Shown: in pieces, positions 5,468 through 62,769 of the stretch
How positions within the stretch are numbered: the stretch's first letter is position 1
Layout of the letters: every line of letters starts with the position of its first letter
Origin: an uncultured Enterobacteriaceae bacterium
Lineage (GTDB): Bacteria > Myxococcota_A > UBA9042
Direction of reading: 5' to 3'
Length of the DNA stretch: 62,769 bases
Assembly (NCBI GenBank): GCA_964356325.1
Contig: CAYHHL010000009.1
Location: forward strand, 1 to 62,769
Made by a program: the position numbers and the translations under genes
Notes under the pieces: generated by a model
The model's input: only the letters and a program-made list of their open reading frames with translations
What the model was told of the DNA's origin: nothing
Database searches by the model: none

Positions 5468-8400
5468 GGCTTGGGCTCCGGCGTCTTCGGGGCGCTGTCT
5501 TCTTTCGCGGGCGCGCTGTCCGGGCCAGCCTTCTTGCCCTTGGCCTTGGGCGCAGTCTTGCCCTTGACTGGCACGGTCTTCGCCTTGGGCGCAGAGGTTG
5601 CCGCGGGCGCAGCGGATTCCCTGCCTGGCTTCTCGCCGTCCAAGCGATCGCTCGCGTCGTCGTCCTTGGCCTTGCCAGAAGCCTTGCCACCGCCTGGCTT
5701 TTCCGCTTCCGGCAGGTCGATCACTTCGGGCACGGTGCCGTCGTCGCTCTCGTCGTCCAGCCTGCCCTCGGCGTCCGGCTTGCCTTGGTTCTTCCTGTCC
5801 TGCGCATCCTTTTGTTTTTGCGCCTTGAACGGGTCGAAGTTCAGGTCGTGGCGCTCCGGCGGTCCGACCAGATCCACGTCCGCGTTGTCGAAGTACGCTT
5901 TTTCCTGAAGTTTGCGCTCCTCGGACGCCTTCTCGACCGTCTGGAACACCGCCTCGAGGAATCCGCGCTTCTTGCGGTAGTCGACCTTGCCCTCGTACTC
6001 CTTCTGCTTGGTCGCCAGCTCTTCGGCAAACTCGCGAATCTGCTGCATCTTGTTCTCGTGCATCCGCTCCAGATCGCTCGGGTCCTTGATGATGTGCGGC
6101 ACGATGATGAGCAGCAGGTTCTTCTTCTCGAGCAGCTTGGTGGTCTTGCGGAAGAACATGCCCAGCAGGGGCAGGTCGCCCAGGATCGGAATCTTGGAAA
6201 CGCCCGTGGTCTCGCGATCGGTAATCAAACCACCGATGACCACGGGCTGCTGATCGCGTACCACCACGGTGTTGGTGATCTTGCGCTTCGAAGTCGTCGG
6301 CCCCAGATCCGGGCTGATGCCTTCGACCTCGTCGAGTTGCTGGTCGATCTTGAGCTTGATGAAGTCCGACTCGTTGATCTGCGGCGTGATCTTGAGCGTC
6401 AGGTCGACCTCGAGGTGCTGCACCGTGCCGCCGAGCGCGCCGCCGAGCAGGCCGCCCAGCCCGCCGAGACCGCCCAACGACGACGCCGCGCCGCCCAAGC
6501 CGGAGAGGCCGCCGAGACCGCCCAAGGCACTGCCGCCCATGCTCTGGGAACGATAGGGGATCTTGCGTCCGACTGTGATCTCCGCGTCCTCGTTGTTGAG
6601 CGTGAGGATGTGCGGGGTGGACAACACGTTGACGTCGGAATTCTCCTGGATCGCCTGAATCAGGAAGCCGAACGCGGGGATGGACAGGGTGGCGCCGGCC
6701 GGGACAGCGCCTGTGTTGCCGGCGTCGACCTGCAGCAGGGGCCCCTGCAAGCCCGCCGCGAAGCCGCCCGCGTTGAGTTGCTGCAAGCTGACGCCGCCCA
6801 TGCCCAGACCGCCCAAGCCGATCAGGAAGGGCACATCCTTGTACTGGCCGATGTCGAACTTGACGCCCGTCGAGCCGGCGAGTTGGGTCTTGCGGTTCTT
6901 GGAGGTCGAGATCTCCATGATCACGGCTTCGACGTAGACTTGCTTGCGCCGCCGATCGAGCTCGGCGATGACCTTCTGCAAAGACAGGTAATCCTTGAGC
7001 GAAGACTCGATCACCAAGGCGTTGGTGGCCTTGTGCGCGGTGATCTTCACGTCGCCTTCGAACAGCGTGGCCGTCCCGCCGCCCTTGGCCCCACCGGCCT
7101 TGGCGCCGCCGGTCTTGCCCCTCGCCGCGCCGGCCTTGGCCCCGCCGCCGCCGCCCGCGAGCGAGGACAAGGTGCTGGCCACGTCCTCGGCGTCGGCGTT
7201 CTCCAAATGGTGGATGTGGATGGCGCCCTCGCCCGGAATCGGCACGTCGAGCTTGCGGATCAGCGCGTCGATCTTGAGGTAGTTGCTCCTCGTCGCGATG
7301 AGGATGAGCTGGTTGGAGCGGTCGTCAGCAATCGCCTTGGAAAGCGTGACCTTGTTGCCCGCCGGACCGCCGGCGGCTCCGGGAGGCGAACCGGGCGTGG
7401 TCGCTCCACCCTTGCCGCCCGCGCCTTCGAACACCGCGGTGATCTTCTCGACCAGTTCCGAGGCGTCCATGTGCTGCACCGGGCGGATCCAGATCTTCTC
7501 GGCGCCCAGCGGCAAGTCGACGTCGTTGAGCAACTTCATGATGCTGTGGATGTTGGTGCCGGTGTCGGTGACGATGAGCGAGTTGTTCGGCGGATACACG
7601 AAGATATCGCCGGCCTTGCTCTTGAACTTGGTGACCAGGGGCTCGACCTCCTTGGCGTCGAGGTTCTTCAACCGGATGATGCGCGTGACCATGTTGTCAT
7701 CGTTGGGCACCGCGCTCGTGGGCCCGACGACCGTGGCGCCCGAGGTGCGCGCGTCCGCCGTGTCGACGATGTGGTAGAATGCGCCCTTCTTGGTGACGGA
7801 CATGCCGTTGACCATCAGGCTCGACAGGAAGGCGCGGTAGGCCTCGTACACGCTGACCGGCTGCGGCGAAATGATGGTGATCTTGCCGCCGCGCTTCTGG
7901 GTCGCGAGGATGAAGTTGCGCGTGGTCCAACACGAAACGAGCTTCATCACCGCTTCGATCGGCGCGTCCTGGAAGTCCAGTGTCACCTTGGCGTTGGCCG
8001 GCAGCTTCTTGCACTTGATATCGCTGATGTTGTTCTTGATCGCGACGACGTCATCGCCCATCTTCTTGAGGTCGTCGTCACCGATCGCGCCCTTGGCCGC
8101 GCCTGCCTGATCGTCCTTGCCAGCGCGACCGCCACCGGCAGGCGTGGGCACCACCGGATCGCTCGGGCCCCCGTCCACGCCCAGCTTCTTGGACGTTTGC
8201 GCGGGATCGTAGTCCGGATCGAGGGACTGCTTGCCGCCGCCGCGCTTGAACACGCCGCTGCCGGTCGCCTTCAAGTCCTTGGTTTTGCCCTTCTTGTTCA
8301 GCGTGCCGGCGCCGGTCTTGACGGGAATGGTCTTGTCGCCCGGCGGGGCAGCGGCTTGCTGGGCATGCGCCATGCCTGGCAGCAGAAGCGCGCAGATCAG

Positions 8401-11040: not shown

Positions 11041-11877
11041 TTACATGCCTCGGGCTGCTTGCATGTTCACCAGCAAGTCCTTGTAGTTGACGCCTTGCCT
11101 GGCCCCTGCCGGACCGTAGAACACCTCGTCCAGCGTCAAACCGTGCGCGGGCGCCGTCTGCCCGGCGCGGCTGCGATCGCCGCCCAGCAGGATCTGCGGC
11201 ACTGTGAGTGCGTTGAGCCGGCCGCGACCTATGTCGACCAACGTGCCGGTGATGATGCGCACCATGTTGAGCAGGAAGGCGTTTCCATCCACGGTGACCG
11301 TCACGACACCCGGTTCCGGCTCGGCCACCTCCACGCTGCGCAGGTGACGGATCGTCGAGGCCGCGGTACAGCCGACCGCTCGAAACGCCGCGAAATCATG
11401 GATGCCTGCGAAATACACCGCGGCTGCTTGCATGGCCTCGACGTCCAAGGGCCCGCGCACTTGCCAGGCATTTCGCCGGCGCAGGGGCTGGCGCGCTTCC
11501 CCGACCGTCAACCCGTATACGTAGCGCTTGCCCACCGCGTCGGCGCGCACGTCGAACTCCGCGGGCACGTCATCCGCCGCCTGGATCGCCATGTCTTCGG
11601 GTAGATGTGCGTTCAGCCCGAGCATCAGGCCGCGCGCCGGCACCGTCTTGTCGGTTCGCACCAGCACCGGCATGCGGCGGGCGTGCACTCCGGCGTCGGT
11701 GCGGCTGGAACTGCGCGCAATCACAGGCTCGCCGAGCATCCGCAGCCAGGCCGCCTCGAGCGTGCCCGCCACCGTGCGCGTGCCTTCAGCCTGGCGTTGG
11801 AAGCCCGAGAAGTCGGTGCCGTCGAACTGCACCCACAGCAGCACGTGACGCGAGCGCTCGCGGTCCGCGGGCCTCAC
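11041..11877 (-). CDS. truA: tRNA pseudouridine(38-40) synthase TruA
   Basis: QFDGTDFSGFQRQ, SRTDAGVHA (catalytic Asp), FLLNMVRIITG, TAPAHGL. True start is GTG 11877, overlapping the upstream stop (GTGA); the 549-aa ORF-track call is over-extended. Confidence 0.95.
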   Translation of the reverse strand: MRPADRERSRHVLLWVQFDGTDFSGFQRQAEGTRTVAGTLEAAWLRMLGEPVIARSSSRTDAGVHARRMPVLVRTDKTVPARGLMLGLNAHLPEDMAIQAADDVPAEFDVRADAVGKRYVYGLTVGEARQPLRRRNAWQVRGPLDVEAMQAAAVYFAGIHDFAAFRAVGCTAASTIRHLRSVEVAEPEPGVVTVTVDGNAFLLNMVRIITGTLVDIGRGRLNALTVPQILLGGDRSRAGQTAPAHGLTLDEVFYGPAGARQGVNYKDLLVNMQAARGM

Positions 11878-31771: not shown

Positions 31772-31930
31772 GCCTGTCCAGGCAGACGACCGCCCCGAGA
31801 CCCATGAACGAAGCCGGCCCCTGATAAGCCGGTGTGATCGATGGTTGGCGACCCCGACCCGCGCACGTCAGCTCCAGTTGGCGACCCGGACCGAGTGCAG
31901 CGGACCACGAACGAGCGAAAGCACGAGAGG

Positions 31931-34900
31931 ATGGCGATGCGAGAGAAGTTTGACACCGGCAATCTGATGATCCGCAATCTGCTGATCCGCAAGTGGATTC
32001 GCCGGATGACGTCAGTGACGCTCTTGGCCGGCGTGCTGAGCGGCCTGCCGGTCTACGCTCAAGTCGTCGAAGACGTCGATGCCGGCGCGGGGACCAAGAA
32101 GGTCGACAAGAAAGCCTCGCTGATCGAGGACGTGAAGCCGGTCGAGCCGGCGCGCAAGAAGGTCGATGACGACAAGCTGAAGAAGGGCGGCTTCGACTAC
32201 GACCGTCTGGAAACGCTGGGCTTCTCGAAAAAGGAGCAGGAGCTCCAGTTCAAGAAGTCGCAGTTGCGCAAGGAGATCATCAAGACCACGGAACGGTTGC
32301 TGGACCGCACGACGGACAACAGCATCAAGCCCGACCTGATCTTTCGCCTGGCCGAGAACTGGTGGGAGGAGACCCACTACCAGTGGCTGCTCGAAGGCGC
32401 TGAATACATGAAGCAATTGGACGCGTGGGACAAGCTGCCGGAGACGCGCCGCGGGCCCAAGCCGACGCAGCCGGTCGAGAACTACCAGAAGTCCATCGAA
32501 TACTACGAGAAGATCCTGCAGCAGTACCCGAGCTACCCGCGCTTGGACGAAGTGCTGTACCGCTTGGGCAACGCCGCGCTGCAGCAGGGCAAGGCCTTGG
32601 GCGACAAGGTGCTTTCCAACAAGGGCGTGCAGTACCTGAACCAGCTGGTGCAGAAGTACCCGACCTCGAAGTACATCGCCAAGGCGCACCTCGATCTGGC
32701 CGAGCATTTCTTCGAGGCCAACAACCTGACCCTGGCCAAGATGAACTACGAGCGCATCACGCAGAACTTCAAGAACGCGCCGATGTTCAACTACGCGCTC
32801 TACAAGCTGGGCTGGGTCTACTACAACTTGCGCGAATTCCGCCGCACGATCGACACCTTCAAGCAAGTCGTCGAGACCATCAGCAAGGAGAAGGAGCAGG
32901 GCAAGATCGAGTTCCGCCTGCAGGCGCTCAAGGACCTGGTTCAGGCTTTCGCGGAATTGGACCATGGCTGGCCCGAGGCGAAGGACTACTTCAGCAAGAT
33001 CGAGGGTGACGCGGCCATGTGGACACGCCTCGAGAAGATGGCGGAAATCTACGTCGCGATCGACAAGGACGACAACGCCATCGAACTGTTCACCCTGTTC
33101 GTCGAGAGCCATCCGGCCGACGTTCGCTGCGTCGATTGGCACGAGTCGATCGTCGACGTGCGCAAGAAGATCGGCAACTTCCCCGACGTCGAAAAGGCGA
33201 TGCGCAGCTTCTTGGCCTTCACCGACGACCGGACCAGTGCGTGGGTCGCGGCGGTCAAGCGCCAGGGCGAGAAGGGCGGCGAGGCGTTGGACAAGGCCGG
33301 CAAGATGGGCGAGGCCTACTTGCTGTTCATTTCCAACAACTACCACCAGACCGCGCAGAAGACGCAGGACGAACAGAAGGACTTGGAGAAGGCCAAGCCG
33401 TTCTATGCCAAGGCCGCCAGCGACTACAAGGAGTTCGTCCGTCGCTATCCGAATAGCAAGAAGGCGTACGTCGTCAACTTCTACTACGCGGAAATCCTTT
33501 ATGATCAGCTGCAGGACTACCGCGGCGCGCTCGACGGCTACAAGGCGTGCATCGTCCGCGACCCGTCGGGCGAATTCGTCGAGGACGCGGCGTTGGGCGT
33601 GCTGTATTCGACCGAGAAGCTGATGGCCAAGACCCATGCGAAGTGGGACGCGGTCAAGAATGCCTGGGTGGACGATCCGACGGCGCCGGCGCTCATGGCC
33701 GAGATGGGCGAAGAGACGACGACCAAGAAGTTCAAGAAGGAGAAGAACTCCGAACTGACCGAGGAGCAGATCAAGTCCGCGCAAGTGCCGAAGAAGCGCC
33801 AGGAACTGCACCCGTTGGAGAAGGACTATGTCGACGCGGCGGACAAGTACGTCGAGATCATGTTCCGCTTGAAGGACGAGTGCGAGAAGGGCAACAAGCG
33901 CTCGTGCAACAAGGGCAAGAAGGTCCCGGAAATCATGTACGTGGCGGCGACGACCTACTACGATCGCGGCCAGTACGACAAGGCCGTGGAACGCTTGGAG
34001 AAGGTCTACACCTACCAGCCCGAGAACAAGGTCGCGGAAATCGCGGTCAAGACCATGATCGACGTGTTCGCGCGCCACAAGGAGTGGGTCAAGATCGAGG
34101 ACTGGGCGCGCAAGATGCTGGTGCGCAAGAACCGGATCGTGTTGGAGACCAAGGACCTGCGCAAGTACATCGTCGTGGCCGTGGCCGAGCAGGCGTTCGA
34201 ACTGGTCGAGCGCAAGGACTGGGACGGCGCGCACAAGAAGTTCGACACCATCCTGGCCGAGTTCCGCAAGGACGAACCGGAGTTGGCGGCGACCGCGCTC
34301 TACAACAAGGCGATCCTGTACGAGAAGCAGAAGGAGGACGTCAAGGCGATCACGACGTATGAGCGTGTCGTCAAGGAGTTTCCCAAGGCCAAGGTCGGTC
34401 CCGAGGCGATGTTCCAGATCGGCGTGATCTACGAATCGATGACCCAATTCAAGGACGCCGCCGACGCGTTCCTGAACATGGCGAAGTTGCGGGACAATGC
34501 CGACGCGGCCCAGGCGCTCATCAACGCGGGCCAGATCCTGACCGCGCTGCAGAGCTACAAGGAAGCGGGTGCGGCCTACGACAAGTTCCAGACGGTGGCG
34601 GGCGCACTCAAGGGCGAGGACGAGAACACCAAGCGTCTCAAGGGTTTGATTCCCGATGCCGAGATGGAGAAGGGCCACGTGTTCGAGAAGCTGGGCACCG
34701 AGGGCGCGGCGAAGGCAGCGGGCATCTACGCGTCCATCGTGACGAAGTTCAGCAACCGTCCGGACTTGCAAGTGGAAGCGCTGGGCCGCCGCACCGAGAC
34801 GTTGCGCACGAGCGACCCGGTCAAGAACCGCAAGGAGGTCGTGAAGGCGGCCGATGCAGCGGTGGCGGCGTTCGCCAAGCCCGAGGCGCAGAAGGGGCGC

Positions 34901-35593
34901 GCGGCCTACCACGTGGCGCAGGCGCAGTTCTACAAGTCCGAGTATGACTTCGATGACTTCGACGTGGTGACGCTGAAGACGGTGAAGAAGATGTCGGCGT
35001 TGGGGCCGGCTCTGCAGAAGAAGGCAGAACTGCTGAAGAAGGCTGAGAAGGGCTACTTCACGGTCATCGATGCCACGGCGGCTGGCGCGGGTCGGGCGTT
35101 CGCCGCGGCATCGGCGTTCAAGATCGGCGTGCTGTACTTCAAGTTCAAGGAAGACTTGTTCAATGCACCGGTGCCGCCGCAAGTGGCGCAGAATCCGGAG
35201 CTCGAGCAGGCCTACCGGGCGATCATCGAGAAGTTGGCGGTGCCGATCGAAGAGCAGTCCCTGTCGGCGTTGCGCAATGCCATCAACATGGCGCACAACC
35301 TCGGCGTCTACAACAAATGGTCCAAGGAAGCCGGCGAGTACGCGGCGCGGGTCAGTCCCGAGGAATACCCGACGGTCGAGAAGGACCCGAACCTGCCCAA
35401 GGCGACCACGGCGGTCAGCGCGAACAAGGCGACCGACGCGGCGACTTCGGCGGCGTTCATCACGAGCGTTCGGCGCGGCAAGTTCACCGTGTCGTTCAAG
35501 CCGGGCGACGACAAGCCCGTGGAACCCAAGACCAAGGGCAAGTCTTCGGGCGCGGTCGAGGGTGGCAAGCCCTCAGCTCCTGCGCCGCAGTAG
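31931..35593 (+). CDS. gltD: GltD (AgmU)-like large TPR protein
   Basis: About 1220 aa secreted TPR protein (YPSYPRLDEVLYRLG, ALYKLGWVYYN, FYYAEILY, C-terminal LGVYNKWS); start revised to ATG 31931; sits upstream of gltE/gltF-like genes. Confidence 0.7.
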   Translation: MAMREKFDTGNLMIRNLLIRKWIRRMTSVTLLAGVLSGLPVYAQVVEDVDAGAGTKKVDKKASLIEDVKPVEPARKKVDDDKLKKGGFDYDRLETLGFSKKEQELQFKKSQLRKEIIKTTERLLDRTTDNSIKPDLIFRLAENWWEETHYQWLLEGAEYMKQLDAWDKLPETRRGPKPTQPVENYQKSIEYYEKILQQYPSYPRLDEVLYRLGNAALQQGKALGDKVLSNKGVQYLNQLVQKYPTSKYIAKAHLDLAEHFFEANNLTLAKMNYERITQNFKNAPMFNYALYKLGWVYYNLREFRRTIDTFKQVVETISKEKEQGKIEFRLQALKDLVQAFAELDHGWPEAKDYFSKIEGDAAMWTRLEKMAEIYVAIDKDDNAIELFTLFVESHPADVRCVDWHESIVDVRKKIGNFPDVEKAMRSFLAFTDDRTSAWVAAVKRQGEKGGEALDKAGKMGEAYLLFISNNYHQTAQKTQDEQKDLEKAKPFYAKAASDYKEFVRRYPNSKKAYVVNFYYAEILYDQLQDYRGALDGYKACIVRDPSGEFVEDAALGVLYSTEKLMAKTHAKWDAVKNAWVDDPTAPALMAEMGEETTTKKFKKEKNSELTEEQIKSAQVPKKRQELHPLEKDYVDAADKYVEIMFRLKDECEKGNKRSCNKGKKVPEIMYVAATTYYDRGQYDKAVERLEKVYTYQPENKVAEIAVKTMIDVFARHKEWVKIEDWARKMLVRKNRIVLETKDLRKYIVVAVAEQAFELVERKDWDGAHKKFDTILAEFRKDEPELAATALYNKAILYEKQKEDVKAITTYERVVKEFPKAKVGPEAMFQIGVIYESMTQFKDAADAFLNMAKLRDNADAAQALINAGQILTALQSYKEAGAAYDKFQTVAGALKGEDENTKRLKGLIPDAEMEKGHVFEKLGTEGAAKAAGIYASIVTKFSNRPDLQVEALGRRTETLRTSDPVKNRKEVVKAADAAVAAFAKPEAQKGRAAYHVAQAQFYKSEYDFDDFDVVTLKTVKKMSALGPALQKKAELLKKAEKGYFTVIDATAAGAGRAFAAASAFKIGVLYFKFKEDLFNAPVPPQVAQNPELEQAYRAIIEKLAVPIEEQSLSALRNAINMAHNLGVYNKWSKEAGEYAARVSPEEYPTVEKDPNLPKATTAVSANKATDAATSAAFITSVRRGKFTVSFKPGDDKPVEPKTKGKSSGAVEGGKPSAPAPQ

Positions 35594-56603: not shown

Positions 56604-57013
56604 GTCCCTTCGCCGTGCTGGCGAGATCGCGATGCCGGTCGCGGCCAAACGGCCGGCACGACAACACGGCGGACTTGCGCCGGACTGCCTGTTGGCCGCC
56701 GACCCGGTTTATTCCGCATCGGCGCGAACTGGCATTCAGTTCCCCTCGGAAACCCGTTGCAGTCCCGGCGGCGCTTTGCTAGCCTCCGCAGGCGGGAAGG
56801 CCCTCGCCTGCGCAGCGGCGTCCTTCTCAGACCGACCACGCGTTGTTTCCGGGCATGATCCACCTGGCGGCGCGTTTCGGGGCCGAATCTGGATTCGACA
56901 TCGAAGGCATGCGAACGTTGCGATCCCCTAGCAACTCGTTGCACCGTCAAGGTCGAGCCGGTGGAAGAGGATGGAAGACACCCGCCCCGCTCGTACGGCT
57001 CAGGAGGATTGTA

Positions 57014-60000
57014 ATGCGAAGTCAGCGGTCTGCACGCACGCTGCGCGTGGCGCTGTTCGCGGTGGTGTTGGCGTGCGTTTCGGCATGTCAGACTCCGGCC
57101 GCGGATGCGCCCTCTGGACAACTCGCTGACTTTGCGAGTGGTGTCGATGCCGAATTCGGGGTCGAGACCTTCGCGTTGACCACGCCGACGCTCAAGATCA
57201 CGTCGCCGGAGCCGAACAAGCAGTTCGGCACCGACTTCACCGTCGCTGGCGCCTTGAAGGTGCCGGTCTGCCTCTACCCGAGCGATGCCAACGTCGGCCT
57301 CAACGCCGGCCAGAACAAGATCGTCTGCTACTTGGACGGCGGCACGCCCCTGAGCACGGCCAAGCCAGTTCCCGCCAACGATCCGTCTGGTTGCGCGTTC
57401 AATACCTTCTCGGTCACGTTCGCGGCGGTGCCCCAGAAGCTCGGTATGCACGCCATCGAGTGCACCCTGGCCGACGCCAACGGCGCGCCGCTCACCAACG
57501 CAACCGCTCACGACGTCACGCATTTCTTCGTCACCGGCGATCCGCTCAGCGTCGATCCGGCCAACAAGTGCGGCAGTGACGCCGACTGCGACGACGGCAA
57601 CGCCTGCTCGACCACGGACAAGTGCCAGGATTTCCATTGCGTCTACTCGTACGACGCCGCGCTGACCTGCTGCAACAACAGCCTGGACTGCGTCGCGGGC
57701 GAGGCGTGCCTGAATCCGAACACCGTGACCGCCAAGTGTTCTTCGTGTCAGAACGACAGCGAGTGCAACGACAACAAGAAATGCACCACAGACAAGTGCG
57801 ATCTGAGCGGTGTCAAAGGTACTTGCGCCAACTTCAAGTTGGACCCGACCTGCTGCGAGGATGCCACCGACCTGTGCGACGACGGCAAGGCGTGCACCAA
57901 CGACAAGTGCAATGTCGTGACCGGGAAGTGCGAGCACGACCAGCCCAAAGGCGTGTGCTGTCAGGCCCAGGACTGCAACAACAGCGACGAGTGCCTGGTC
58001 GCGAGCTGCGTCGATCTCGAGTGCCGCTACGGCAAGGACATCTTCAAGCCGGACTGCTGCTCGACGATCACCAACGCCCTGTGCGACGACAAGAACCCGT
58101 GCACCATCGACAAGTGCGACCAGAGCCAGGGCGCCACGCCGAACTGGACGAAGTGCTCGCACGTCTCCGATCCGGCCAAGCCCAAGTGCTGCGACATCGT
58201 TGGCGACACCAAGTGCGACGACGGCAACATATGCACCGCGGACGTCTGCGAAGCCTTCGAGTGCAAGAACATCCCCATCGGCGAGTGCTGCGTCAAGGAC
58301 ATCGACTGCGACGACCAGAAGGAGTGCACGCAGGACAGCTGTGACGCCCAGGCCGGCAAGTGCGTGCACGCCAAGGGCGATCCGCTGTGCTGCACCGACA
58401 ATCCGGACTGCGTCGACAACCTGTTTTGCACCGTCGCGAGCTGCGACATCGCGGCCAAGAAGTGCGTGTTCTCCACGCCTGACCCGACTTGCTGTGACGC
58501 TGACGCCAGTTGCGACGATGGCAACATTTGCACCGTCGACGCCTGCGTGAACCACTACTGCGTGCACGGCCCCGACGCCAACATGACGAACTGCTGCAAC
58601 GGCCAGGCCGACTGCAACGACAACGACGTTTGCACCATCGATAGCTGCAACGTCACCTCGCACAAGTGCGAAGTCATCGACAACGGCGATCCGTCCTGCT
58701 GCCAGAACCAGCTCGACTGCGACGACCTGGACTGCTCGACGCTGAACTTCTGCGACGCCAACAACAAGTGCCAGTACAAGCCTTATCCCGAGTTGTGCAC
58801 CAAGGACGTCGAGTGCGAGGACAACGACGCCTGCACCAACGACAGTTGCGACCTCAGCTCCGGATGCGGCCAGTGCAAGCACGAGGCGAGCACGACCTGC
58901 TGCGTGGCCGACTACCAATGCGACGACAGCAAGCCCATCGGCACCACGCCGGCCAATCCCAGCGCCTCGTGTACGACCGACAAGTGCGTCGACGGCGCCT
59001 GCCAGAACAACGCGATCGCCGGCTGCTGCGTCGACGACAAGGACGCGTTGACCGCCTGCGACGACAAGAACGCTTGCACCATCGACTATTGCGTGAACAA
59101 CCAGTGCCGGCACACCGCGCCCAAGAACGGTTGCTGCGCCGCGATCGCGGACTGCAACGACGGCGACAAGTGCACGACCGACGCCTGCAAGAGCATCGAT
59201 CCGGTCACCAAGATCGGCAGTTGCACGAACCTCGCCGTGCCGGATTGCCAATGCACGCAGGCCGGCGCCTTCAACGGCTCGGAATGCAACGACGGCAACG
59301 ATTGCACCACCGACGCCTGCAGTGTCACGACCAGCAAGTGTACGCACTCGGCGATCGAGGGTTGCTGCGTCGACAAGTTCGACTGCAACGACGGCAACGC
59401 CTGCACCGCGGACTTCTGCATCCTGGCTTCGTGCTTTTACTACTCCAGCGTCGGCGGCACTGCGGTGTGCTGCTCGCCCGCCACCCAGGATGTCGATTGC
59501 GCTTACCTGAACACCGAGTGCGCCAAGGGCGTGTGCTCTGATCAGGTCGACGGCAGCAAGAAGTGCACGGCCGAAACGGTGCCGGTCTGTACGGTCAACA
59601 TCGGCTACTGTCAGGACTTTTCCGCCAGCACCAACCTGCAGGCGATGGGCTGGAATCCGGGCGATGTCTCGGGCAACGGCGCCAAGAACTGGGGCCTGGC
59701 CAAGGACGGCGCCTTGGGGCCGGATCAGCACGCGCGCTTCAGCTGGACGCCGACGACCATCAACTACAACACGTGCTTGCAGTCGCCGATCATCCAGGCG
59801 GCCGGTGCCACCACGATCACGATGCAGTTCGACCGCGAGTTCGTGTGGAACCAGGGCGAGACCGACATCACGGTGTACGGCACCTTGGACGGCGCCAACG
59901 CGGACTGGACCAATGCCACGCAAATCGACACCTTGAAGATGACCGCCGACCTCGCCGCGCAGACCGTGGACTTCACGCTGCCGGCGGAACTGTCGGGCTC

Positions 60001-62769
60001 CAACGGCCTGCGCCTGGGCATCTGCGTCCAAGGCACCAGCACGTTCAACCTGACCAGCTTCGCCCTGGACAACATCTGCATCGTCAAGGGCAACAAGCCG
60101 GTGTTCTCGAAGTGCCCGGTCAACCAGGTGGTTCCGCTCGGCGCCAAGAAGTACCTGCCGCTCAAGGCCTACGACCCGGACACCGACGCCATCCTCTCGT
60201 TCTCGCTGGTCAAAGCGCCGTCGTTCATCACCCTGACGAGCGCGCTGTACTACTGGCTCGACACCAGCTGGAACACGACCATGGTCATCGATCCGACCAC
60301 CACCGCGCACGTCGGCACCTGGCCCGTCACGATCAAGGTCAGCGACGGATCGCTCTACAGCACCTGCACTTTCGACGTCATCGTCACTTACAAGGGTGGC
60401 TACCTGGTCTGGCGCCCGAGTGAAGTGCCGGTGGCGGCTGGCGACGCGATCTTCAATTCGATCAAGTCCAAGGGCAAGATCGTCCAGCACATCAGCGACA
60501 TGAGCCTGTACCCGGACCTCGTGGGCTTTGACGGCGTGTTCGTCACCCTGGGCGTCTACCCGAACAACCACGTGCTGACCGACACCGAAGCCGGTCCGCT
60601 GTCGCTGTACCTGGCCCAGGTCGGCCACGTGTACATGGAAGGTGGCGATACTTGGGCATTCGATCCGCCCACGCAGCTGCACGCCCTGTTCAAGGTGCTG
60701 GCCCAACAGGACTCGACGCCAGCGGGGATCACCGGGCCGCTCAATGGCCTGGCGTCGCCGTACATCGACATCTTCCAGGCGCCGATCAAGACCTACAACT
60801 TCGCGTACGACCAGGGTTATGACTGGAACAACCTGAACGACATCATCACCGGCAAGGTGACGATCCACCGCACCAAGAACATCTTGTCGAACACGATGAC
60901 CACGGGCGAGATCGTCCAGGTCGCGCACGATGACGATACAGGCTATCGCTCGGTCGGTTCGACGATCTTGTTCGGCGGCGTGATCGCCGGTCCCGACGAC
61001 ATCAACGGCATGATGGGCCGCGTGCTGGACTTCTTCGACAACGGCTTCGTCGAGTGCAAGGGCGCCACCGACTGCGAAGACAACAACATCTGCACGATCG
61101 ATACTTGCGTCAGCGGCGAGTGCGGCCACAAGAGCACGTGCAGTTGTTCGGCCTCGGCGTCCCTGACCTGCGGCGAAACCTTGACGCTGGTCAGCAACGG
61201 CACCGGCTCGACCAACAGCGTCGTCGATTACGCTTGCGACACCGCGGTCAAGTACACGGGCGCGGAACAGGCCATCAAGTTCGCGACTGCGACTTCCTCG
61301 CCGGTCACCCTCACGGTCACCGGCTTGACCAACCCCGCCGCCAAGGTCTTGGTTCTCAAGGCCAACGACTCGGGCTGCGACCCGGCGGCGTGCATCGCGC
61401 TCGGCGACGCGTCCAAGCCGATCGTGTTCGCGGGCGCGGCGGGCGCTTCGTACTTCGTGGTGCTCGACGTGCCGGCTGGTGGCACCGCGCAGGCCGACGT
61501 GAAGTTCCAGTGCGGCGCTGGCGAAAACTGCTCGAACAAAGTCGACGACAACAGCAATGGCCTGGTCGACTGCGCGGACCTGCTGTCGTGCTGCGGCGAC
61601 GCGGCGTGCGGCGAAGTCTGTGACGGCTTGGACAATAACTGCGACGGCAAGGTCGACGAGGGCTGCGACGACGACGCCGACAAGTTCTGCGACAAGGACA
61701 TGACCGTCGTCAACACGCCGCCCATCTGCCCGCTCGGCGGCCTGGACTGCAACGACACGCAAGCGACCGTAAATCCAGGGACTCCCGAGATCTGCTCCAA
61801 CGGCAAGGACGACAACTGCAACGGCGTGCAGGACGAAGAGAACGCGGTGGGCTGCACCAACTTCTGGGTCGATCTCGACGGCGACGGCTTCGGCGGCGGC
61901 GTGCCCAAGTGCTTGTGCGGACCTTCGGGCGCGTTCTCGGCCAAGAAGGGCAACGACTGCAACGACGCGAACATCAAGGTGAACCCCGCGGCGATCGAGA
62001 TCTGCGGCAACACCATCGACGACGACTGCTCCGGCTCGCAGAACGACTTGAACGCCCAGGGTTGCTCGGACTTCTACACCGACAGCGACGTCGACCAGTG
62101 GGGCGCATTGCCCAAGAAGTGCCTGTGCTTCGGCGCGGGCGTGACCACTGCCACCAAGCCCGGCGACTGCAACGACAGCGACAAGCAGGTGAACCCGGAA
62201 TTGCTCGAGACCTGCAACAACCAGGACGACAACTGCAACAACGTGATCGACGAAGGTTGCGACGATGATCTGGACGGTTATTGCGACATCAACCTGGGTT
62301 ACGTGACCATCGGCGGCTCGGCCAAGCTGTGCGGCCAGGGTGCGATCGGCACCGACCTGACCGTCACCTGCGAAGCCGGCATGACGATCACCAGCGTCGA
62401 CTTCGCCAGCTACGGCACGCCGAGCGGCGGCTGCGGCACCTACCAGACCGGCGTCTGCCACGCGCCGACCTCGGCCCAGGCGGTCAAGAACCTGTGCTTG
62501 GGCAAGGCCAGTTGCACCATCGCGGTGAACAACCCGACGTTCAGCAGCGATCCGTGCCCCGGCTTTGCCAAGATCCTCGACGTTCAGGTCACTTGCACCG
62601 GCAATGGCGGCGTGGCCCCGGACGTGTGCGTCAAGGGCCCGGGCGATACCGACGACCTCGACCCGTTGATCAACCCGAACGGCAAGGAGATCTGCGACGG
62701 CAAGGACAACAACTCGGACCTCAAGGTCGACGAGGGTTGCGATGACGACGGCGACGGCTTCTGCGACGC
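57014..62769 (+). CDS. Giant Cys-rich surface lipoprotein (3' truncated): CTDC-type repeats, beta-sandwich/Ig and GATase-like domains, PPC-like domain, MopE-type repeats and a SUEL lectin domain
   Basis: ATG 57014 after AGGAGG; MRSQRSARTLRVALFAVVLACVSA|C lipobox. No stop found in the segments translated by hand, and the ORF track lists nothing ending in this frame, so it appears open to the window edge (1918 codons). About 18 C(D/N)DxxxCTxDxC repeats; ExCDGxDNxCDGxxDEGC repeats; FASYGTPSGGCG..CLGKASC..DPCPG. Confidence 0.9.
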   Translation, partial: MRSQRSARTLRVALFAVVLACVSACQTPAADAPSGQLADFASGVDAEFGVETFALTTPTLKITSPEPNKQFGTDFTVAGALKVPVCLYPSDANVGLNAGQNKIVCYLDGGTPLSTAKPVPANDPSGCAFNTFSVTFAAVPQKLGMHAIECTLADANGAPLTNATAHDVTHFFVTGDPLSVDPANKCGSDADCDDGNACSTTDKCQDFHCVYSYDAALTCCNNSLDCVAGEACLNPNTVTAKCSSCQNDSECNDNKKCTTDKCDLSGVKGTCANFKLDPTCCEDATDLCDDGKACTNDKCNVVTGKCEHDQPKGVCCQAQDCNNSDECLVASCVDLECRYGKDIFKPDCCSTITNALCDDKNPCTIDKCDQSQGATPNWTKCSHVSDPAKPKCCDIVGDTKCDDGNICTADVCEAFECKNIPIGECCVKDIDCDDQKECTQDSCDAQAGKCVHAKGDPLCCTDNPDCVDNLFCTVASCDIAAKKCVFSTPDPTCCDADASCDDGNICTVDACVNHYCVHGPDANMTNCCNGQADCNDNDVCTIDSCNVTSHKCEVIDNGDPSCCQNQLDCDDLDCSTLNFCDANNKCQYKPYPELCTKDVECEDNDACTNDSCDLSSGCGQCKHEASTTCCVADYQCDDSKPIGTTPANPSASCTTDKCVDGACQNNAIAGCCVDDKDALTACDDKNACTIDYCVNNQCRHTAPKNGCCAAIADCNDGDKCTTDACKSIDPVTKIGSCTNLAVPDCQCTQAGAFNGSECNDGNDCTTDACSVTTSKCTHSAIEGCCVDKFDCNDGNACTADFCILASCFYYSSVGGTAVCCSPATQDVDCAYLNTECAKGVCSDQVDGSKKCTAETVPVCTVNIGYCQDFSASTNLQAMGWNPGDVSGNGAKNWGLAKDGALGPDQHARFSWTPTTINYNTCLQSPIIQAAGATTITMQFDREFVWNQGETDITVYGTLDGANADWTNATQIDTLKMTADLAAQTVDFTLPAELSGSNGLRLGICVQGTSTFNLTSFALDNICIVKGNKPVFSKCPVNQVVPLGAKKYLPLKAYDPDTDAILSFSLVKAPSFITLTSALYYWLDTSWNTTMVIDPTTTAHVGTWPVTIKVSDGSLYSTCTFDVIVTYKGGYLVWRPSEVPVAAGDAIFNSIKSKGKIVQHISDMSLYPDLVGFDGVFVTLGVYPNNHVLTDTEAGPLSLYLAQVGHVYMEGGDTWAFDPPTQLHALFKVLAQQDSTPAGITGPLNGLASPYIDIFQAPIKTYNFAYDQGYDWNNLNDIITGKVTIHRTKNILSNTMTTGEIVQVAHDDDTGYRSVGSTILFGGVIAGPDDINGMMGRVLDFFDNGFVECKGATDCEDNNICTIDTCVSGECGHKSTCSCSASASLTCGETLTLVSNGTGSTNSVVDYACDTAVKYTGAEQAIKFATATSSPVTLTVTGLTNPAAKVLVLKANDSGCDPAACIALGDASKPIVFAGAAGASYFVVLDVPAGGTAQADVKFQCGAGENCSNKVDDNSNGLVDCADLLSCCGDAACGEVCDGLDNNCDGKVDEGCDDDADKFCDKDMTVVNTPPICPLGGLDCNDTQATVNPGTPEICSNGKDDNCNGVQDEENAVGCTNFWVDLDGDGFGGGVPKCLCGPSGAFSAKKGNDCNDANIKVNPAAIEICGNTIDDDCSGSQNDLNAQGCSDFYTDSDVDQWGALPKKCLCFGAGVTTATKPGDCNDSDKQVNPELLETCNNQDDNCNNVIDEGCDDDLDGYCDINLGYVTIGGSAKLCGQGAIGTDLTVTCEAGMTITSVDFASYGTPSGGCGTYQTGVCHAPTSAQAVKNLCLGKASCTIAVNNPTFSSDPCPGFAKILDVQVTCTGNGGVAPDVCVKGPGDTDDLDPLINPNGKEICDGKDNNSDLKVDEGCDDDGDGFCD

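Follow-up and report, generated by a model that had tools for sequence, protein, structure and literature searches.

Among bacterial members of the galactose/rhamnose-binding lectin family SUEL (PF02140), RemA of Flavobacterium johnsoniae is the only one known to have been studied. RemA belongs to a gliding bacterium and is a large surface protein with a single SUEL domain (PDB 8gl6, chain D); a passage of PMC8481357 that cites Shrivastava 2012 reports that it binds galactose-containing exopolysaccharide, and it is reported to be an adhesin. Within the myxobacteria, the surface receptor TraA of Myxococcus xanthus, which acts in adhesion and recognition, carries a lectin-like domain on cysteine-rich tandem repeats that have been proposed to form a rigid stalk (PMC3325183). 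This study concerns a protein that resembles both. Its 5' part is encoded at the end of a contig of 62,769 nucleotides (nt) (GenBank assembly GCA_964356325.1, contig CAYHHL010000009.1, forward strand), which is the whole stretch of DNA that was analysed and is called the window hereafter. The protein is a predicted lipoprotein of about 3,830 residues from an uncultured freshwater myxobacterium, and it contains a SUEL lectin domain (62327-62596, + strand) that interrupts the variable loop of unit four of its MopE-type (PF11617) repeats. Surface proteins with a SUEL lectin are already known from bacteria; the variant that is new here is the nesting of the lectin in the loop of a MopE repeat.

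The comparison with RemA extends to the subtype of the domain (FASYGTPTG.CG.F...C.A...DPC.G..K.L), which is the same in the two proteins: the profile of the window family scores RemA at 86.7 bits, and RemA keeps the full set of sugar-site residues considered below. RemA differs in being a Bacteroidota protein secreted by the type IX system, in having other repeats, and in that its SUEL domain, with four cysteines in the aligned piece, is not nested in a cysteine-rich loop. The window protein, in contrast, belongs to Myxococcota and is built of MopE and CTDC repeats; Pfam finds PF11617, PF00526 and PF02140 in it and nothing else, with no SprB repeat, and its link to gliding genes consists only of a partly conserved proximity at 27-30 kb. 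TraA has its lectin-like domain, of the PA14 type, at the N-terminus, together with TIGR04201 repeats and a MYXO-CTERM tag, whereas the window protein has a SUEL domain in the middle of an array of PF11617 repeats and a lipobox at its N-terminus. Pfam found no PA14 domain in it, NCBIfam matched neither terminus, and the two together gave no family on the C-terminal 330 amino acids (aa) apart from a MopE motif; no C-terminal signal of the type IX system was detected there.

The animal rhamnose-binding lectins CSL3 and SUL-I and the lectin domain of latrophilin share with the window domain their fold, the eight-cysteine framework and the positions of the primary sugar site (PMC3269628), but they have ANYGR and KYL motifs and form an outgroup in the tree described below, whereas the window domain has FASYGTP and AKIL, and an Ile in place of the Glu of the site. 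The C-terminal domain of rice BGal1 is the best structural match (template modelling score, TM, 0.74; root-mean-square deviation, rmsd, 1.4 Å) and has the signature FAS(F/Y)GTP.G.CG.F..G.CH in common with the window domain. Unlike the window domain, it is attached to an enzyme and does not lie within a repeat, and it is without the equivalents of Asn74 and Gly83 that the window domain keeps.

Identity and position of the lectin domain

Positions 62327-62596 of the window encode a genuine SUEL domain, as the original prediction, made from the sequence without database searches, had proposed. The piece excised from the open frame that starts at 57014 scores 75.6 bits against the PF02140 profile (E = 3.9e-21), where the gathering score is 31.4, and a six-frame search of the whole genome with the profile finds a SUEL domain at 62366-62596, with 75 bits, and nowhere else in the 6.6 Mb assembly. 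A search of PDB sequences with the domain matches SUL-I, the rice BGal1 C-terminal domain, CSL3, RemA and latrophilins. A model built by AlphaFold 2 (AF2) with 12 orthologs as input has predicted local distance difference scores (pLDDT) of 84-90 across the domain, and Foldseek assigns to it a probability of 1.0 for 14 SUEL structures (the top one being 5iaz, TM 0.74, rmsd 1.4 Å); SUEL structures are the only ones matched at E<1e-3. In the alignment of the 31 sequences with a lectin at the same site, every one has the eight cysteines, and all eight are invariant. In SUEL domains these are joined as C1-C3, C2-C8, C4-C7 and C5-C6 (PMC3269628). The window domain has YGT in place of YGR and DPCPGFAKIL in place of DPCxGTYKYL, a variant common to bacterial and plant members.

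When the entire frame of 1,975 aa (56843-62767) was scanned with Pfam, PF02140 was not listed, and MopE and Dicty_CTDC were the only families given. Since a SUEL match of 75 bits was missed in this way, nested modules in giant proteins of low complexity are probably under-reported, and the lesson for annotation is that such domains can slip past routine procedures when the surrounding protein is large and of biased composition.

The central 700-aa module of the host protein occurs in two full-length paralogs per genome in the lake family of Myxococcota to which the host belongs, with 45-64% identity. I will refer to the paralog in the window and its orthologs as lineage A, and to the other, represented by a copy on contig C13, as lineage B. 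The parts of the lectin-bearing unit and its surroundings are these:

62171-62254, + strand: PF11617 motif of the lectin-bearing unit (NDSDKQVNPELLETCNNQDDNCNNVIDE), to the left of the lectin; 32.6 bits (cut-off 27)
62255-62326, + strand: acidic GCDDDLDGYCD motif, then the loop's left arm (INLGYVTIGGSAK); orthologs keep the junction on this side, YCD-xxLGY
62327-62596, + strand: SUEL lectin domain (LCGQG...VQVTC) with eight cysteines; Pfam envelope 62366-62596; identified by profile, PDB search, AF2 and Foldseek
62345-62347, + strand: ATC codon, for Ile, where other members have the sugar-binding Glu (Glu7 of CSL3, Glu42 of latrophilin), by alignment to CSL3
62597-62644, + strand: right arm of the loop (TGNGGVAPDVCVKGPG), carrying the loop's own cysteine, which is present in lectin-less units too
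62305-62635, + strand: segment without DNA counterpart in the C13 paralog, which has 31 nt (about 10 aa) instead
62651-62734, + strand: degenerate PF11617 motif of the next unit, to the right of the lectin; 18.4 bits, below the cut-off of 27, with two cysteines missing (GDTDD for GDCxD, DNNSD for DNNCD)

The predicted placement of the lectin inside the loop of a MopE-type unit is also borne out. Among the 17 recognisable units of the form CDxDxDxYC-loop-GDCxD in the protein (as joined across two contigs; see below), the loop is 16-17 aa long in 12 and 21-25 aa in three, and reaches 118 aa in the lectin unit alone. PF11617 matches flank the domain on both sides, so that in Pfam terms the lectin sits between motifs, in the variable linker of a period of about 62 aa.

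The unit that follows the insertion loop (62645-62734) is itself unusual, in that two of its cysteines have been replaced together, presumably those of one disulfide. The resulting GDTDD/DNNSD signature is kept in both paralog lineages, with or without the lectin, and it therefore predates the A/B split and marks that unit.

Relatives of the domain

The original prediction called the domain eukaryote-type, a term that reflects where the SUEL family was first studied and not where the window copy came from. An exhaustive sequence search returned 3,052 cluster representatives at E<=1e-3. The top per-domain matches, of 66-84 bits, bear the signature FASYGTPxGxCGxF...CHA...DPC, and the one nearest match that is named, among ten top matches, comes from a metagenome-assembled genome (MAG) of Bdellovibrionales. 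In or next to the clade formed by the SUEL domains of the family are proteins with the architecture GSDH + CHB_HEX_C + Fn3_assoc + 3 SUEL, and others there combine a CE2 esterase/GDSL domain with three SUEL domains, a galactose-oxidase Kelch domain and He_PIG with two SUEL domains, or an SprB repeat with one. In the SUEL tree RemA groups with SprB-type sequences, the animal lectins take the outgroup position, and a long branch leads to the rice domain. By its sequence, then, the domain is assigned to a bacterial SUEL subgroup whose members elsewhere form part of carbohydrate-active enzymes and of RemA/SprB-type gliding adhesins, and the phylogeny does not bear out a eukaryotic origin.

A literature search on SUEL in myxobacteria gave unrelated matches only, and a preprint on horizontal transfer of cysteine-rich repeats makes no mention of lectins or of the PF11617/CTDC-type repeats found here.

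The sugar site and the function of the domain

The primary sugar site of CSL3 is made up of Glu7, Tyr27, Asn74, Asp79, Gly83 and Lys86, with latrophilin equivalents Glu42, Tyr63, Gly117 and Lys120 (PMC3269628). Aligned via the family profile and MAFFT, the residues at the six positions, in that order, are as follows:

Lineage A, family consensus: E-Y/F-N/S-D-G-K
RemA: E-Y-N-D-G-K
Lineage B: D-Y-H-D-G-K
Rice BGal1, C-terminal domain: none, F, P, D, E, K
Window copy: I-Y-N-D-G-K

Most orthologs keep all six residues. The window copy keeps five, with Ile at the position of Glu7, and the Ile codon at 62345-62347 is free of variants in the four sequencing runs compared, three of RNA and one of DNA. 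Judging from the site and from the relatives of the domain, the SUEL of this family is probably a glycan-binding module of the galactose/rhamnose type. A role in glycan recognition, as originally predicted, is the most reasonable function for the family, but it is not assured for the copy in which it was proposed: that the window copy still binds sugar is a proposition for which the chances appear to be even, and its binding may be weakened or changed, since Ile replaces a key Glu.

If the module does bind glycans, the protein might work in the following way. Roughly 45 repeats, rich in disulfides and in Asp, would form a stiff and probably calcium-stabilised stalk, anchored by the lipid at the N-terminus, an idea that draws on the analogy with TraA (PMC3325183) and on the chemistry of Asp- and Cys-rich repeats. 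The first and last strands of the lectin would be tied by the C2-C8 disulfide, so its two ends should be adjacent and the domain should project sideways from the stalk. There it would bind galactose- or rhamnose-type sugars of a polysaccharide, which might belong to the cell's own matrix, to the envelope of prey or to the surface of an alga or cyanobacterium, and this binding would give adhesion. In the window genome, with Ile at the key position, affinity or specificity would probably be off the family norm.

The reading that I prefer overall is a composite one: a nested SUEL domain of a bacterial subgroup, inserted long ago in lineage A, its like taken up repeatedly (both points are treated below), and binding galactose or rhamnose on a stiff stalk. 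It seems to me reasonably likely as a whole. Several facts weigh against it. The Glu that is replaced by Ile in the window copy is the one that hydrogen-bonds the sugar in CSL3 and latrophilin, and some orthologs have Gln, His or Leu in its place. The rice BGal1 C-terminal domain, the closest solved structure, bound no carbohydrate (PMC13070324), and latrophilin lectin domains have been solved in complex with protein partners (teneurin, FLRT and TOL-1, among the Foldseek entries). As for the stalk and its anchor, the flanking repeats are modelled by AF2 at pLDDT below 55, and the status of lipoprotein derives from a lipobox read by eye; as for the rest of the protein, Pfam and NCBIfam gave no family to the non-repeat modules.

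The facts that concern the sugar site, the rice domain and the latrophilin complexes would suit a different explanation, that the nested SUEL is no sugar binder but a module for protein-protein contact or for structure, possibly a decaying lectin in the window genome. I consider this rather unlikely. The eight cysteines and five of the six primary-site residues persist in the window copy, and most orthologs have the site complete; the nearest relatives sit on carbohydrate esterases, galactose-oxidase-like enzymes and adhesins of the RemA/SprB type; and the rice domain, whose failure to bind might otherwise be instructive, differs from the window domain at Asn74 (Pro) and at Gly83 (Glu).

The preferred reading, glycan binding by the family, can be approached through a natural comparison set, consisting of paralogs with and without a lectin at the same loop and of orthologs in which the key position is occupied by Glu, Gln, His, Leu or Ile. 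The set could be used to probe what the domain binds and how disulfide-rich repeats tolerate nested domains.

Age of the insertion

PF02140 is present in 31 of the 37 genomes (84%) of the lake family of the host, representing 12 of its 14 genera, and always in frames of 2,000-6,500 aa. Elsewhere it is found in 1 of 24 genomes from other families of the same class, in about 5 of 275 genomes of Myxococcota outside the family, and in 4 of 301 genomes of Bacteroidota; no SUEL was found in four genomes reached through loci. Lectins of this kind are rare in bacteria, occurring in about 1-2% of the sampled genomes in two phyla.

Ortholog loci were translated, together with their flanks, by phmmer on six-frame translations. 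The MAGs that hold the orthologs are from lakes (Baikal, Tanganyika, Swedish lakes, Zurich) and bear the label Myxococcales or Deltaproteobacteria; the orthologs are 46-62% identical, so distant that synonymous sites would be saturated. The lectin lies in exactly the same loop in 24 genomes from 10 genera, with no exception among the recovered lineage-A orthologs, and the junctions are identical: YCD-xxLGY...C[SUEL]...xPxxCPKGPGD(T/S)xD. No lineage-A ortholog with an empty loop was found, and the family genomes without a PF02140 match have no recovered lineage-A gene. The constancy of loop and junctions in so many genera, with no empty lineage-A loop, indicates that the insertion is old and fixed. 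Homologs of the central module occur in other families of the class, where they are distant (31-34% identity, in frames up to 8,700 aa) and the families are without PF02140. The existence of these lectin-less homologs implies that the scaffold predates the lectin. Taken together, the alignments place the entry of the domain into lineage A near the base of the lake Myxococcota family, and show it kept at that loop in 10 genera.

The original prediction had implied a recent insertion, and had itself named fixation of the domain at this site as the outcome that would tell against one; fixation is what the recovered lineage-A orthologs show. One could imagine a recent event, specific to the genome or genus and possibly a transfer from a eukaryote, on the grounds that no more than some 10 aa stand at the homologous place in the C13 paralog and that SUEL is so rare among Bacteroidota and non-family Myxococcota. 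This is already contradicted by the identity of site and junctions throughout the 24 orthologs, by a domain tree that broadly follows the flank tree, and by outside relatives that are bacterial in architecture, with the animal lectins as outgroup and the rice domain on its long branch, and I regard it as very improbable.

Uptake at equivalent loops

An old insertion in lineage A leaves the state of lineage B to be considered. The paralog on C13 reads EGCDDDLDGFCDANMTYVAPPTPGICPQGPGDTDD at the homologous place, and at the level of DNA it has 31 nt where the window has 331 nt (C13 matches positions 18-305 and 637-768 of the query). Contiguous lectin-less orthologs of lineage B were recovered from 22 genomes in 11 genera. 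When the lectin is taken out and a tree is built from the flanks, lineage B forms a single clade (99/99) that has no lectin in those 11 genera, and six sequences with B flanks and a divergent SUEL are nested in a subclade of one genus, g11 (98/96). In the SUEL tree, the domains of these six B sites nest with those of a family protein with CGDDGCGGSCG repeats (99/88 and 100/95), the combined group joins SUEL domains that follow a LamG-like segment (98/93), and all of them stand apart from the A-site domains. Forcing the A-site and B-site domains to be monophyletic costs 74 log-likelihood units (p=0.010 by the approximately unbiased test), a value to be read with reservation, since the tree was already in view when the groups were defined. 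Finally, genome G007 has an empty B site, and a type-A unit five units downstream of it bears a SUEL with a junction of the same style.

The simplest reading of these trees is that a SUEL was inserted once, long ago, in lineage A, that another entered the homologous loop of lineage B later and independently, and that G007 has a third placement elsewhere. The third may have arisen by recombination between units. The six B-flank sequences with SUEL in g11 had raised the thought that the C13 paralog had lost its lectin secondarily; this was rejected on the flank tree, where lineage B is lectin-less in 11 genera.

The original prediction spoke of a plug-in module. With a lectin-less paralog in so many genera, a different SUEL gained in one genus from another protein of the family, and a further placement in G007, the description as a plug-in site does fit the loop on an evolutionary time scale. 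It is a clean case of repeated domain insertion at one structural position, and the uptake of SUEL at equivalent loops is to my mind the most interesting point about the locus. A bolder proposal would make the short loop of CDxDxDGYCD MopE units a reusable docking site for lectins, entered by SUEL domains at least three times, in two paralogs and from different donors, and would make the lectin-bearing paralog a myxobacterial counterpart of RemA, convergently evolved in another phylum and on another scaffold, that binds matrix or prey glycans in concert with the Glt machinery. This goes further than the preferred reading and I hold it to be distinctly doubtful.

The lake family has at least three other architectures with SUEL. 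The domain occurs after a LamG-like segment and before CTDC-type repeats (seen in genera g5 and g9; g5 has this protein but is without the giant A/B protein), between CGDDGCGGSCG repeats (g11 and g7), and in a further cysteine-rich protein (g9). Proteins of the LamG context also show, about 1 kb farther upstream, a half-length, sub-threshold SUEL match of 27-31 bits that spans model positions 1-59.

The C13 paralog has two non-repeat inserts in its own MopE array, of 217 aa and 162 aa (6752-7402 and 5537-6022 of the locus on C13, both on the - strand), one in the loop of a type-B unit and one inside a PF11617 motif. Pfam gave no match on either, and the first shows, by eye, a tentative likeness to lamin tails (FIINEF...NEYIELLV). 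A run of N at about 11750-11860 of the C13 locus, either masked sequence or a scaffold gap, splits the frame of the paralog, whose full length is probably over 4,000 aa.

The host gene and its surroundings

The features of the host gene in the window are these:

57014-62769, + strand: 5' part of the host gene, encoding a giant lipoprotein; broken by the contig end and continued on contig C42
57014-57088, + strand: putative signal peptide with lipobox (MRSQRSARTLRVALFAVVLACVSA, followed by C), read from the translation; VSAC fits [LVI][ASTVI][GAS]C
57570-59400 (approximate, bounds by eye), + strand: cysteine-rich repeats of the Dicty_CTDC type (PF00526, 53 bits, 5 stretches)
59402-61501, + strand: non-repeat central module, 700 aa, which defines the protein family by comparison of paralogs and homologs
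60302-61051, + strand: alpha/beta domain within the central module, with a fold like that of class-I glutamine amidotransferases and the GIFT domain of IFT52, from a model
61617-62769, + strand: start of the MopE-type (PF11617) array, 70 bits in the window part

The window is an entire contig (C9) of a 6.6 Mb assembly in 464 contigs, and the host gene is accordingly broken in the assembly. Its frame opens with a TTG at 56843 and meets no stop before the window ends; the Met at 57014 is the likely start. The last 55 nt of C9 are identical to the first 55 nt of C42, and positions 1-5792 of C42, a contig of the same assembly, hold the continuation, with a first frame open for 1,929 codons of MopE repeats. 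Joined across the two contigs and counted from the TTG at 56843, the frame has 3,887 codons without a stop and is colinear with the closest ortholog (genome G003) for more than 550 aa beyond the junction, including quirks specific to single units. In addition, one metatranscriptome contig of 1,934 nt bridges the junction, differing at one position from 61800-62769 and at no position from C42 1-859. The overlap, the colinear ortholog and the bridging RNA contig together establish that the join is real. On C42 the MopE array runs for about 1,900 aa more (PF11617, 683 bits, 25 stretches).

The position of the gene at a contig end in highly repetitive DNA might suggest an assembly chimera, or contaminating eukaryotic DNA fused to a bacterial repeat gene, but the probability of this is negligible, given that the same arrangement recurs in assemblies made independently from many lakes, that DNA and RNA runs, separately, yield Logan contigs that cover 61800-62769 with 0-1 differences and extend into C42, and that the frame is open throughout.

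The alpha/beta domain at 60302-61051 comes from the one confident model out of five (pLDDT 78.5), and its top fold match is 5fms, the N-terminal GIFT domain of IFT52 (TM 0.57-0.62, E 2e-4).

The host gene lies 27-30 kb downstream of the gene for a large Glt-cluster protein (31841-35590 in the window), on the same strand, in six genomes of five genera (g1, g4, g8, g12 and g13); in genus g9 and in genome G010 each of the two is on a large contig of its own. As a link to gliding, this proximity is weak.

The gene is transcribed in lake samples. RNA contigs about 100% identical to the gene region have a depth of 11-14 in runs of about 0.13 Gb, as against a depth of 5 in a DNA run of 1 Gb, which favours real transcription, even though the depth of contigs measures it poorly. 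The freshwater metatranscriptome runs derive from the same samples as the DNA runs and cover 61800-62769 and positions 1-1500 of C42. Across the RNA and DNA contigs there are only four single-base variants, at 61995, 62266, 62401 and 62587.

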